Part shown: positions 2,188 to 26,044 of the stretch, piece by piece | How the letters are laid out: each line of letters opens with the position of its first letter | How positions within the stretch are numbered: position 1 is the stretch's first letter | Source: Chlamydiales bacterium | GTDB taxonomy: Bacteria > Chlamydiota > Chlamydiia > Chlamydiales > SM23-39 | Assembly: GCA_036736085.1 (NCBI GenBank) | Contig: DAINNB010000002.1 | Coordinates: 1 to 32,681 of the forward strand | Direction of reading: 5' to 3' | DNA: 32,681 nucleotides | The notes under the pieces: model-generated | Databases searched by the model: none | What the model was told of the DNA's origin: nothing | What the model saw: only the letters and a program-made list of their open reading frames with translations | Program-made: the position numbers and the translations under genes

Positions 2188-2236
2188 GGATTCCAAAGGA
2201 CGAAGTCCTTTGGCCGGGTTTGGGGCAGCGCCCCAA
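2188..2236. repeat. Double-hairpin GC-rich repeat, solo copy A
   Basis: GGATTCCAAAGGAC-GAA-GTCCTTTGG CCGGGT TTGGGGC-AGC-GCCCCAA. The same unit recurs at 5746-5871, 7994-8041, 23272-23322 and 25739-26044. Confidence 0.85.
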
Positions 2237-2239
2237 TGA

Positions 2240-5200
2240 TTACTGACAGCTTTCGCAGCCTTCTCCTAATGTGCAGACAGTTGGCGCGGAAACCTCTCTA
2301 TCGACCTTAATGTTGCTAGAGGCAGACTTGCTTTTCATCCAGCGGGGCTGGAGGCCTCGTTTGTTAATATCGATAGATGATTTTTCGATCTGCGTGGCTC
2401 CGAGCGAGCGGAGATAGTAGGTGGTCTTTAGTCCTTTTTCCCAAGCTTGCATGTACATTTGGTGTAATTTTTTGCCGCTGGGTTCGGACAGATAAAGATT
2501 GAGGGATTGGCCCATATCGATCCACTTTTGTCTGCGGGCGCCGCATTCGAGTATCCATTCCGGTTCGATTTCAAACGCTGTGAGAAATAGCTGCTTGATT
2601 TCATCGGGAATGCGCTCGATTTCTCGGATGGAGCCATCAAAGTATTTTAGATCGTCGATCATCTCCTCATCCCAAAGATTTTCTGCTTTGAGCCTTTCGA
2701 CAAGGTAAGGATTCGTGATCGTAAATTCGCCAGAGAGGTTCGATTTGACGAACAGATGCTTGTACATCGGTTCGATCGAAGGGATGGAGCCTGTAATATT
2801 TGCAATCGTTGCTGTTGGAGCGATCGCCATGGTGTTGCTGTTTCTTAGGCCATGTTTTTTTACAGCCTCTCTGACAACTGTCCAGTCCATCGATTTAGAG
2901 CGGTCCACGTCAATGGGAAGACCTCTTTCTTTTTCGAGGATTTCCAATGTGTCGATAGGTAAATAGCCCCGGTCCCATTTCGATCCTGCATAAGTAGGAT
3001 AGCGTCCTTTTTCTGCCGCCAGTTCCGTTGAAGCTAGGATGGCATAGTAAGAAATCATCTCCATGCTCTTATCTGCAAATTCGACAGCTTCGTGGCTGGC
3101 ATAGCTAATATTTTGCATGTAAAGAGCGTCTTGGAATCCCATGATCCCCATGCCGATAGGCCGGTGTCTGAGGTTGGCATTCTTGGCTTCTACTGTGGGG
3201 TAGAAGTTGATGTCGATCACGTTGTCGAGCATTCTTACGGCTGCTTTGATTGTGGCGGCGAGCTTCTTTTCGTCGAGGCCTTTGCTTGTCATGTGCTTGG
3301 CCAAATTGATCGAGCCTAAGTTACAGACAGCAGTTTCTTCCGCTGATGAATTGAGGAGGATCTCAGTGCATAAGTTAGAAGAGTGGACGACGCCTTGGTG
3401 ATCTTGAGGTGAGCGGATGTTGGAGGGATCTTTGAACGTGATCCAAGGATGGCCGGTTTCAAAGAGCATGCTGAGCATTTTTCTCCAAAGCTGGATCGCT
3501 TCGAGTTTTTTAAACAGCTTGATTTCTCCTGTTTCCGTCATCTTTTCATATTCAGCGTACCGTTTTTCAAAAGGAGCTCCGTAGAGATCGTGAAGATCGG
3601 GCACATCGCTTGGGCTGAAAAGAGTCCATGAGCCACCCTCTTTGACCCGCTTCATGAAGAGATCGGGAATCCAGTTGGCCGTATTCATATCGTGTGTGCG
3701 GCGTCTCTCATCGCCTGTATTTTTACGCTATTCTTAATATTCTTCGATGTCCAAATGTCAGGTTTCATAATAGGCGCACATAGCCCCTTTTCGTTTTCCT
3801 CCTTGATTCACCGCTACGGCGGTATCGTTGGCTACTTTAAGAAAAGGAATCACGCCTTGTGAAGTGCCATTGGTTCCTTTAATGCGAGCGCCTGTGGCTC
3901 GAACGTTCGACCAGTCGTTGCCGATGCCGCCTGCCCATTTAGATAGCTGAGCATCGTCGGCGACAACTTTAAAGATATGGTGGAGATCATCCATGACAGT
4001 AGAGAGATAGCAGGAGCTCAGTTGCGAGTGGAGCGTGCCTGAATTAAATAAGGTTGGTGTAGATGAGGTGAAATGAAATTGGGAGAGCACATGATAAAAC
4101 TCGATGGCTCTTTGGTTTTTTTGATCCCCTTCGCCAAGGGCGAGGCCCATAGAAACGCGCATCCAGAAAATTTGAGGGGTTTCCAATCTTCGCTGTTCAT
4201 GGTGGAGGAAATAACGATCGTAAAGAGTTTGGAGGCCAAGATAGGTGAATAGATCATCTCTCGATATATCCATGGCCTGTCCTAAAAGATCCAAGTCGAA
4301 ATCAAGCAGGTCTGGAGAGACGCGCTGATAGGAGATTGCTTGCCTTACATATTTTTTGAAATACTTTTGGTGCGCTTTTTTTAGACCCGAATCGGAAGCG
4401 GGAAGGCCCATTGTTTCTCTATACAAAATGTCGAGCAGAAGACGGGATGCGACCTGTGAGTAAGCGGGTTCTTTTTCGATTTTTGAGCGGGCCGCCATGA
4501 TATGGGCCAAATCGACCTCCTCTTCTTTAATCCCTATATAAAACTGGGCAAGGGAGGTATCTAGCATTTCATCAACGGAGACAACGGATTCTAACCCTCT
4601 GCAGGCAAAAGAGAGTTTTTTTCGCAGTTGATTTTCATTGATCGTGATTGTTTTTCCATCAGCCGCAACAATTTCAAATTCGCGCACATGAGCCCCTTCA
4701 TTTGAGGGCGCTGCCGCCATTTCGTGCTGCAAGTCTTATTCCGCGCTGTATAGGATATAGTTTCTCGCAACACCAAAATATTTTTCGCTCATCAACTCTC
4801 TTTCGATCCGATCTTCTACGGCATCGATATAAAGAGCTTCCCCTTGAGAAGATAAATAGATCATCTCGTCTACGATTTTTTTTGTGAGCACGTTCACAGC
4901 ATCGACGACTTCATCAGGAGACTGCTCTTCGATATTTCTCGCTCTTCTAAAAGCCCTTTCTATGGAAGAGGCGATTTTCATAGGATTGAAACGGGTGGGG
5001 GTCGTTTTATCTCGGCGGTAGATTTTCACGTTTTGCGGCGTCTCTTTTCGGGTCGCTTTGCGGCTGTCTCTATAAATAATGTAATCGCGGGCTACGTCAT
5101 GGTATCCGTTTTTCATTAAAGTGACTTCTACCACATCTTGGATCCCCTCCACGGTAAGGCACGCACCTTTAGATGCCAGGTTAAGCAATTGTTTCACCAC

Positions 5201-25715: not shown

Positions 25716-25738
25716 AGTACATCTATTGTTTAAAAGCC

Positions 25739-26044
25739 TTGGGGCGCCGCCCCAAACCCCGCCAAAGGACTTCGTCCTTTGGAATCCTGAGTTTGTTGAG
25801 GGATTATAACACGATGGGATTTTCTTGACTGTTAGTTTGTGCAAGACTCCGTCTTGCAAAAACTAAAAAAATAGGATCCCAAAGAACCTCGTCCTTTGGA
25901 ATTTTAAGTTTGTTAAGGGATCATAGCATGACTGGATTTTTCTTAATTCTTAGTTTATGTAAGCCCCTGTCTTACATAAACTAAAAAAACAAATAGGATT
26001 CCAAAGGACGAAGTCCTTTGGCGGGGCATGGGGCAGCGCCCCAT
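25739..26044. repeat. MITE-like composite: inverted double-hairpin repeat units flanking two tandem 117/122 bp units
   Basis: The left unit (25739-25787) and the right unit (25996-26044) are in inverted orientation. Between them, 25783-25899 and 25900-26021 are about 80% identical direct repeats. Each ends in a CCAAAGGAC...GTCCTTTGG-type hairpin and each contains a long internal hairpin (25832-25866 and 25951-25983). No ORF. Confidence 0.8.

Follow-up and report, generated by a model that had tools for sequence, protein, structure and literature searches.

A dispersed two-hairpin repeat with a T-rich tail at gene ends of a Chlamydiales genome

Introduction

What kind of element is the short GC-rich double hairpin that recurs between the genes of an uncultured chlamydia, and what does it do at the positions where it is found? 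We analyzed a 32,681-nt stretch of the genome of a Chlamydiales bacterium (assembly GCA_036736085.1, contig DAINNB010000002.1, positions 1 to 32,681), referred to below as the window. An earlier note, made from this sequence, had described a family of about 48-bp double-hairpin repeats resembling repetitive extragenic palindromes (REPs) or transposable elements of the miniature inverted-repeat type (MITEs), and had proposed that they mark gene ends and flank segments interrupting a Chlamydia-like gene order. We found a family of homologous repeats, spread genome-wide, whose copies lie preferentially just past stop codons in the sense orientation. From comparisons of sequences we consider it probable that they are non-coding structured dispersed repeats of the kind known as REPs, REPINs (REP doublets forming hairpins) or bacterial interspersed mosaic elements (BIMEs), with a role as a gene-end terminator or a 3'-stabilizing module.

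Structure of the repeat unit

The repeat family in the window is real and all the copies claimed were recovered. Reading of the sites, repeat detection and alignment of the oriented copies gave seven full units (c1 to c7) and one half copy (Table 1). The earlier coordinates were right within a few bases. The count of at least eight is reached with the half copy included, and the unit measures about 62 nt instead of about 48 bp, as the conserved T-rich tail (CCTATTTGTTTTTT and variants) is part of it. A 30-nt core with at most three mismatches matched six times in the window and not once in 100 shuffled versions, and the hairpin-2 core likewise occupied six window sites (10 strand matches, four of the sites matching on both strands) and no shuffled ones. 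The copies are homologous to one another and occur in both orientations at gene ends, so that the description of a dispersed, structured repeat of the REP or MITE type was borne out.

Each unit begins with hairpin 1, (T/A)(T/C)GGGGC-N3-GCCCC(A/G)(A/T), and continues through the linker (A)CCCC(G/A) into hairpin 2, CCAAAGGAC-N3/4-GTCCTTTGG, the stems having the 7 and 9 bp first proposed; AAWCC and then the T-rich tail follow on the 3' side. Three subfamilies are found in the window. In subfamily B (c4, c5), as compared with subfamily A (c1, c6, c7), the linked changes TTTGG>TCTGG and AATCC>ACTCC cost one pair of hairpin 2 and form AGTCC-TCT-GGACT immediately 5' of the T tract. Subfamily C (c2, c3) has both sides of the outer hairpin-2 pairs altered, to TTAAAGGAC/GTCCTTTAA, and hairpin 2 of c2 is a TTAAAGG variant that is in part degenerate.

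Folded singly, units form two hairpins with about -24 to -29 kcal/mol and z-scores of -1.9 to -3.7. Of the seven window copies, three (c1, c4, c5) are solo; the others form tail-to-tail pairs, with arms of 66 nt, 82% complementary and 2 nt apart, in c2/c3, and arms of 49 nt, 94% complementary, in c6/c7. Read as one strand, the c2/c3 pair folds into a single 126-nt hairpin of -87.5 kcal/mol (z = -14.5). Inside the c6-c7 composite a 117-bp unit, which includes hairpin 2 of c6 and a hairpin GCAAGAC-N4-GTCTTGC, is tandemly duplicated at 25762-25995, and the composite of a close relative (locus L110, see below) has the identical arrangement.

Covariation was assessed in an alignment that combined window copies with copies of other genomes, 74 distinct ones in all. 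Standard pairs fill 94.8% of its stem cells vs 33-57% in slid controls, and both sides have changed at nine pairs, values that none of 500 shuffles reached. All of U-A, A-U, C-G and G-C are found at the outer pairs of hairpin 1; the low variation of hairpin 2, which served as the search bait, is partly a matter of ascertainment. Both stems are thus shown to be maintained by compensatory changes. We also compared G-U with A-C counts for the strand of function, and this was uninformative, as the 18 A-C cells come from one inherited subfamily change. The length of the G-run in hairpin 1 (GGGG or GGG) equals that of the C-run in the linker (2x2 table 41/3/1/13, Fisher p = 2e-9 with kinship ignored), and c4, whose hairpin 1 is degenerate, folds with its G-run paired to the linker, which suggests two competing partners for this G-run. 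The aligned copies start with TTGGGG, ATGGGG or CGGGG, and no conserved GTAG or CGTC tag was found among the 74. Several chlamydial relatives have a third hairpin, ATCTTCCGC-N-GCGGAAGAT, between or after the arms (L015, L052, L075, L085, L110 at 14880-14900, L114 at 9030-9067); in L114 it reads CTCTTTCGC-TTA-GCGAAAGAG, with compensatory changes between genomes.

Placement at gene ends

Copies c1, c4, c5 and c7 lie in the sense orientation after nrdA, rmuC, ftsH and pnp, respectively, and start between 35 nt before and 22 nt after the stop codon. The same holds more widely: in the low-GC loci fetched, 20 of the 25 copies within 60 nt of the end of an open reading frame (ORF) are co-oriented with it, and many start 0-14 nt past the stop. 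A preference for positions just past stops, in the sense orientation, is thereby shown. A simple terminator scan flagged c3, c7, the half copy and an alternative hairpin of c5. A search for RNA runs of this organism returned none. In the runs found for Asaia, one of the other genera carrying the repeat, depth is flat and genome-like at the level of contigs, and they give no transcript ends.

As the earlier note had it, copies are intergenic or clip gene ends, all but c4 being intergenic. The rmuC ORF owes its stop and its final 11 codons to c4 (...GVLRQTPPKD*); RmuC has 402 aa in the window vs 390 aa in close relatives, the repeat adding 12 residues. In turn, c6 lengthens the longest aspS ORF by 48 codons (...FGGVWGGAP...), in agreement with what the earlier note said of pseudo-peptides in the ORF predictions.

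Presence, absence and conservation in relatives

Syntenic loci were retrieved by means of the PNPase and RmuC homologues. The closest, L110, has a PNPase 96% identical in amino acids and coding sequences (CDS) about 83-87% identical in nucleotides; PNPase identity is 88% for L111, 84% for GCA_030681135.1 (loci L112 and L114) and 83% for GCA_018239895.1 (L113 and L115), which has no repeat copy in the 33 kb fetched. The last genome was named 'Verrucomicrobia bacterium' by its source, a label that looks wrong because the genome shares the chlamydial gene order of the clade along with the 83% PNPase identity.

The repeat follows pnp in the window, L110, L111 and L112, and a unique GC hairpin stands there in L113. 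After ftsH, it is present in the window, L110 and L111, with unique long hairpins in its place in L112 and L113. The copy after nrdA in the window has as its counterpart in L114 a canonical hairpin followed by CTTTTTT. The divergent pair between nrdA and the CDP-OH transferase gene recurs in L114 (8968-9129) and is absent from L115; the copy after rmuC is seen in the window, and neither L114 nor a JGI contig, which has a 24-nt spacer at this site, carries one. The repeat is thus shown to occupy positions otherwise filled by ordinary 3' stem-loops. These unique stem-loops at orthologous repeat-free sites are the main support for a putative terminator or 3'-end role.

Where copies are shared, they are well kept. 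The orthologue of c6 is retained in L110 (58/60, 96.7% identical) and L111, and c7 is identical at 62/62 positions in L110 vs 86.6% for the pnp CDS, against a background of 83-87% in CDS and 72-87% in the remaining intergenic DNA. Alignment thus shows copies persisting at the same sites across species-level divergence, some of them at higher identity than the adjacent coding DNA. A closer relative of BP7.bin23, a MAG (metagenome-assembled genome) placed in this clade, likewise has a copy at the same site, and copies from the window, from BP7.bin23 and from L111 resemble one another as much between genomes as within them. Further tail-to-tail pairs were found in L015, L069, L085, L110 and L114.

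Table 1. Repeat units and composite units in the window; units are oriented 5'-hairpin 1 to T tail-3'
Feature	Position	Strand	Remarks
c1, full unit	2175-2236	-	nhmmer 71.7 bits; between nrdA and nrdB, 3 nt past nrdA stop
c2, left arm of tail-to-tail pair	5746-5807	+	between divergent nrdA and CDP-alcohol phosphatidyltransferase genes
c3, right arm of c2/c3 pair	5809-5871	-	hairpin 2 with compensatory changes TTAAAGGAC/GTCCTTTAA
c4, subfamily B, hairpin 1 degenerate	7992-8054	+	overlaps 3' end of rmuC ORF
c5, subfamily B	23273-23335	+	22 nt past ftsH stop, upstream of hsp20
c6, left arm of 306-bp composite	25739-25798	+	antisense, just upstream of aspS; tail less T-rich
Half copy, hairpin 2 and tail only	about 25873-25914	+	from 117-bp tandem duplication within composite
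c7, right arm of composite	25983-26044	-	18 nt past pnp stop
Compact palindromic pair c2/c3, REPIN-like	5746-5871		126 nt
Composite palindromic unit c6...c7, tail to tail	25739-26044		184-nt spacer containing 117-bp duplication

Copy number in the genome

The window sequence has its match in contig DLXJ01000194.1 of the MAG GCA_003448855.1. The number of copies was estimated from Logan contigs of public runs, which were compared with the window for depth. At every window copy the depth rises 5- to 40-fold, contigs end and joins lead to many different flanks. In run X2, a 1.53-Mb contig set matching the MAG, the 65-nt unit is present on 65 contigs at 80% likeness or more, and the summed depth of the core is about 500 vs about 5.5 per single-copy contig, that is, roughly 90 copies. 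The family is therefore genome-wide, with about 65-90 copies in the MAG contig set rather than a few restricted to this region; the density in the window (7 copies in 32.7 kb) is several-fold above the genome average.

The window has a G+C content of 44.7%, its gene content and gene neighbors are chlamydial, and the nearest named homologues of its PNPase, RmuC and transketolase belong to MAGs labeled 'Chlamydiales/Chlamydiota bacterium'.

Occurrence outside the clade

A scan with hairpin 2 alone, in one genome per species, returned at least 105 loci. In at least 66 of the listed loci, hairpin 1 and the linker are likewise present and in register, which amounts to at least 82 full copies. These are found in Chlamydiota MAGs (BP7.bin23 included), a Myxococcota-labeled MAG, Asaia isolates (one of them a complete genome), other Acetobacteraceae, Methylobacterium/Methylorubrum, related Rhizobiales and, in a few cases, other taxa. 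Outside the baited stem, identity between these groups is 55-74%. In Asaia, the unit lies within a multi-copy mosaic of roughly 112 nt with further GC hairpins. The repeat stands just past the 3' end of ftsH in a Hyphomicrobiaceae MAG (L057, 3438-3488) and about 660 nt past pnp in Methylobacterium aerolatum (L099, 4804-4853); that ftsH and pnp bear repeats both here and in the window may be a coincidence.

Searches against known families and elements gave no counterpart. At the gathering thresholds of Rfam 15 there was no match in the window or in five alphaproteobacterial loci; the sub-threshold E-value matches are miRNA precursors, reflecting only the long hairpin of the pair, and were set aside. 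No tRNA or tmRNA was found, the core was not matched in viral contigs, and no account of the repeat family turned up in the papers searched, whether by topic or by sequence string. A 24-nt exact match to hairpin 1 plus linker, TTGGGGCGCTGCCCCAAACCCCGC, lies in a GC-rich segment of 26 plasmids of Vibrio, E. coli, Photobacterium, Providencia and Actinobacillus. Of the two that were inspected (L108, 213-236; L109, 1501-1524), one has it about 0.8 kb upstream of floR, and the second has it next to a MobV relaxase gene. No hairpin 2 follows, and we judged these sequences not to be members of the family.

It is unusual for REP-like DNA that Chlamydiota, which are obligate intracellular, and free-living Alphaproteobacteria should share a core of ~50 nt, and one may ask what enzyme or constraint has kept its sequence the same. 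On one reading, which we hold to be improbable, the core is more than a further lineage-specific REP: it would be an ancient or horizontally spreading sequence-specific module of Chlamydiota, Alphaproteobacteria and others, and some factor, conserved or co-transferred, would recognize its competing pairings (the G-run with either of two C-runs; hairpin 2 vs the tail hairpin). If true, it would be a gene-end element that is portable and may be switchable, or else a substrate for an unrecognized mobilization system.

Repeats and gene order

The association with breaks in synteny held only in part. It had been proposed that the repeats flank exactly the segments interrupting the Chlamydia-like gene order, namely the nrdAB block, the hsp20-aspS pair and a NEL gene. 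The nrdAB block does not fit this description: c1 lies inside it, between nrdA and nrdB, and the order of nrdB-nrdA, the CDP-OH transferase gene and rmuC is kept in relatives. Nor is hsp20-aspS a recent repeat-bounded interruption, as the order pnp-aspS-hsp20-ftsH-tilS is kept in four relatives, one of them free of the repeat over 33 kb. Taken at full length, the orders kept in relatives, including the repeat-free one, are nrdB-nrdA / CDP-OH transferase-rmuC / miaB-rplM-rpsI and lptGF-tilS-ftsH-hsp20 / aspS-pnp-rpsO; hence neither nrdAB nor hsp20-aspS is a recent insertion between repeats. As ftsH and pnp are neighbors in Chlamydia trachomatis, the difference of hsp20-aspS from that order predates this clade.

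The NEL gene, in turn, is a lineage-specific insertion with c4 at its junction, as proposed, and carries a copy on one side only. This effector-like NEL/LRR (leucine-rich repeat) E3-ligase gene (8061-9962, minus strand) lies between rmuC and miaB, c4 abutting its 3' end. Two relatives, whose rmuC and miaB abut or overlap, do not have it at this position. Three gene-content breakpoints altogether carry repeats in at least one close relative. In L111, two extra genes lie exactly between the pnp-side and aspS-side copies, and L110 has repeat pairs at two places of gene-content difference from the window: one at the site of an extra 570-aa ORF of the window, the other beside variable genes. The former site, between lptF and tilS (16520-19052), contains in the window the 570-aa ORF (17334-19046, no Pfam match) and an 86-aa ORF, and measures only 27-230 nt in relatives. 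Alignment of the L110 pair with the window is too diverged for clean boundaries. These cases suggest that copies are linked to local gene gain and loss, a link confounded by intergenic size.

Mobility and competing explanations

On a transcript, the unit probably works as a 3'-end module complete in itself: an intrinsic terminator, an attenuator, or else a 3' hairpin protecting the mRNA against exonucleases. Tail-to-tail pairs, probably the unit of duplication, would work in both directions. New copies might arise through a trans-acting enzyme recognizing the hairpins, by analogy an HUH tyrosine transposase of the RAYT (REP-associated tyrosine transposase) type, of which none was found; this is the weakest step of the scheme. 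Dispersed homologous copies may also favor local rearrangement.

Several results weigh against a gene-end module mobilized in this way. As already remarked in the earlier note, no transposase was found among the window genes, and a RAYT-like ORF was not found in about 0.9 Mb of fetched flanks, whether by a HUH...Y motif screen or by phmmer/jackhmmer with E. coli RayT. Target-site duplications, for which a search had been proposed, were not consistently present at 10 pairs, although the arms are inverted repeats. No clean empty site or deletion form was seen in related strains (four metagenomes, contigs breaking at the copies). On the terminator side, the T tract of subfamily A begins 5-7 nt past hairpin 2, which is non-canonical for an intrinsic terminator, the high-GC alphaproteobacterial versions have no clear T tract, and eight of the 19 copies in the window, L110, L111 and L112 are not positioned to end an annotated gene: four belong to pairs that separate divergent genes, and the other four lie antisense a short way upstream of a gene, which is aspS or, by the L110 7895-8017 pair, a hypothetical one.

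In all-against-all clustering of the flanking ORFs, no transposase-like family was enriched or repeat-flanked, and only short-chain dehydrogenase (SDR), ATP-binding cassette (ABC) and similar common families recurred. Because no clean empty site separates near-identical strains, mobility is deduced from copy number only. The lack of target-site duplications together with hairpin-rich arms would fit, by analogy, single-strand mobilization of the HUH type, as in REP/RAYT systems (PMC3733652, PMC3337134). Three other candidates were discarded: a CRISPR or attC array, as the spacing is irregular; an assembly artefact, as orthologous sites in independent assemblies as well as isolate genomes carry the repeat; and, on inspection, a sigma-54 or extracytoplasmic function (ECF) promoter, as the spacing does not fit.

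The same observations can be read differently. A purely selfish MITE or REPIN without host function would gain its post-stop bias from selection removing other insertions, and would account for palindromic pairs with long arms (49-66 nt at 82-94% complementarity), about 100 copies, the occupation of non-terminator positions such as divergent intergenic regions, and presence or absence varying between related genomes. We hold this to be unlikely in view of the orientation bias past ORF ends (20/25), the T-rich tail that belongs to the unit, the replacement of ordinary terminator hairpins at four sites and the perfect conservation of c7 beside a CDS at 86.6%; moreover, neither a target-site duplication nor a parent insertion sequence or transposase was found. 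Still less do we favor the view that these are recombinogenic repeats producing synteny breakpoints, with gene blocks gained or lost via the copies. The conserved nrdAB and pnp-aspS-hsp20-ftsH orders, also in the relative repeat-free in the DNA fetched, the single copy beside the NEL gene and the many copies at invariant junctions argue against it, and roomy intergenic regions, needed by repeats and gene insertions alike, are a confounder. What it would explain is the position of c4 at the junction of the lineage-specific NEL gene, the two-gene insertion of L111 exactly between the pnp-side and aspS-side copies, and the L110 pairs at the site of the 570-aa ORF and beside variable genes; by a rough count, 3-4 of the four repeat-bearing intergenic regions of L110 are among the 5 variable junctions of about 22 (Fisher ~0.02).

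Host terminators might also spread and be homogenized by gene conversion or template switching, free of any transposase. The failure to find a transposase or target-site duplications, the very high conservation of some copies and the equal likeness between and within genomes for the window, BP7.bin23 and L111 agree with such a process, which is nevertheless improbable, as it needs prior homology and leaves unexplained both the new copies at sites of unrelated hairpins and the core shared by distant phyla. That shared core would be accounted for if the repeat were a conserved RNA or DNA ligand or switch, its two hairpins with competing pairings being recognized by a widely conserved factor. Besides the core common to Chlamydiota and Alphaproteobacteria, this idea draws on the G-run of hairpin 1 tracking the linker C-run in length, on the alternative G-run/linker fold of c4 and on the linked changes of subfamily B forming a second hairpin beside the T tract. 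Yet there is no Rfam family, REP-like DNA repeats typically show just such high copy number, pairs and mosaics, the correlations take no account of shared ancestry and no candidate factor is known; we regard it as very improbable. A REP/REPIN-like repeat with a role at gene ends thus remains the explanation that we prefer.

Other features of the window

Three in-frame ORFs make up nrdA (2240-5557, minus strand), which is split by TAA and TGA at 4736-4738 and 3758-3760. These stops are sense codons in related strains (4738 A>T giving AAA, 3758 T>C giving TGG), and in the MAG's own runs both sites fall into gaps between Logan contigs at about 4-5x depth. Because of the sense codons and the low-depth contig gaps, the stops are probably low-coverage assembly errors and not marks of a pseudogene. 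Upstream of nrdA, a 17-nt palindrome, ATAACTATATATTGTAG (5589-5605), is kept in L114 and L115, the c2/c3 pair lying about 140 nt beyond; the palindrome resembles an NrdR box. At the window start (1-91) there is an inverted repeat of 37 nt, 97% complementary with a 17-nt spacer, which is not related to the repeat family.

Comparison with known repeat systems

For the annotation of uncultured chlamydiae the repeat is of practical consequence: it breaks assemblies, contigs ending at its copies, and corrupts gene calls, as seen for RmuC, aspS and spurious ORFs, so that a model of it would improve annotation. Moreover, 'portable terminators' become directly testable here, since a repeated element stands where the housekeeping genes pnp, ftsH and nrdA would otherwise each have a terminator hairpin of their own. 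The earlier note had missed the preferred orientation past stops, the replacement of ordinary terminator hairpins and the core common across phyla.

Intrinsic (Rho-independent) terminators share with it a GC-rich stem-loop and a T-rich tract past stops in the sense orientation, and the sites in question are taken in relatives by unique terminators of the ordinary kind. They differ from a homologous repeated sequence with two hairpins, a T tract displaced by 5-7 nt in subfamily A and copies where no gene ends. The Correia elements of Neisseria are small palindromic repeats with inverted ends, present in about 100 copies near genes, and affect transcript ends and stability. Our repeat resembles them, and MITEs generally, in size, inverted ends, copy number and proximity to genes; Correia elements, however, have defined terminal inverted repeats (TIRs), a TA target-site duplication and an integration host factor (IHF) site, whereas no duplication or defined internal sequence was seen here. 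DNA uptake sequences (DUS) of Neisseria and uptake signal sequences (USS) of Haemophilus are lineage-specific words of 9-12 nt, inverted pairs of which form terminator stems after genes. Inverted pairs of a short repeated sequence after genes are common to these and to the present family, which is in contrast a 50-nt two-hairpin unit found across phyla; nothing found here bears on DNA uptake.

Palindromic repeats tagged with GTAG or CGTC, as well as 'TIRtrons' with double palindromic TIRs, occur in several phyla including the Planctomycetes-Verrucomicrobia-Chlamydiae (PVC) group (Di Nocera et al., 2013; PMC3733652). These superfamilies of small stem-loop repeats include double palindromes as well as repeats arranged in dimers or clusters, and no transposase is associated with the CGTC class (PMC3733652). 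The repeat ends described here lack both the tag and the GGGGWSAS motif, and no flanked tyrosine transposase was present in the DNA examined.

The closest parallel is provided by the REP, BIME and REPIN sequences of Enterobacteria and Pseudomonas, which are mobilized by RAYT transposases (Bertels and Rainey; PMC3337134, PMC8049555). Like these, the present family consists of short GC-rich extragenic palindromes in tens to hundreds of copies, long-lived, mostly located after genes and without target-site duplications; it occurs as singles and as inverted pairs folding to one long hairpin, and builds pairs or mosaics of alternating orientation (c2/c3 and c6/c7 in the window, the mosaics in Asaia). 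Unlike REPs, the unit combines two different hairpins with a linker and a T tail in 50-62 nt instead of 20-40 nt, has no GTAG head, and was not accompanied by a RAYT in the window or in ~0.9 Mb of flanks. Singles also outnumber pairs here. As to the REPIN scheme, in which the doublet replicates and singlets are decayed, doublets occur alongside the three solo window copies, and c7, conserved best of all, forms one arm of the composite, at the gene end. REP families are, moreover, usually specific to a species or genus, unlike the core of this repeat, which is common across phyla. The repeat is probably best described as a REP/REPIN-like element of a new form, with two hairpins and a T tail.

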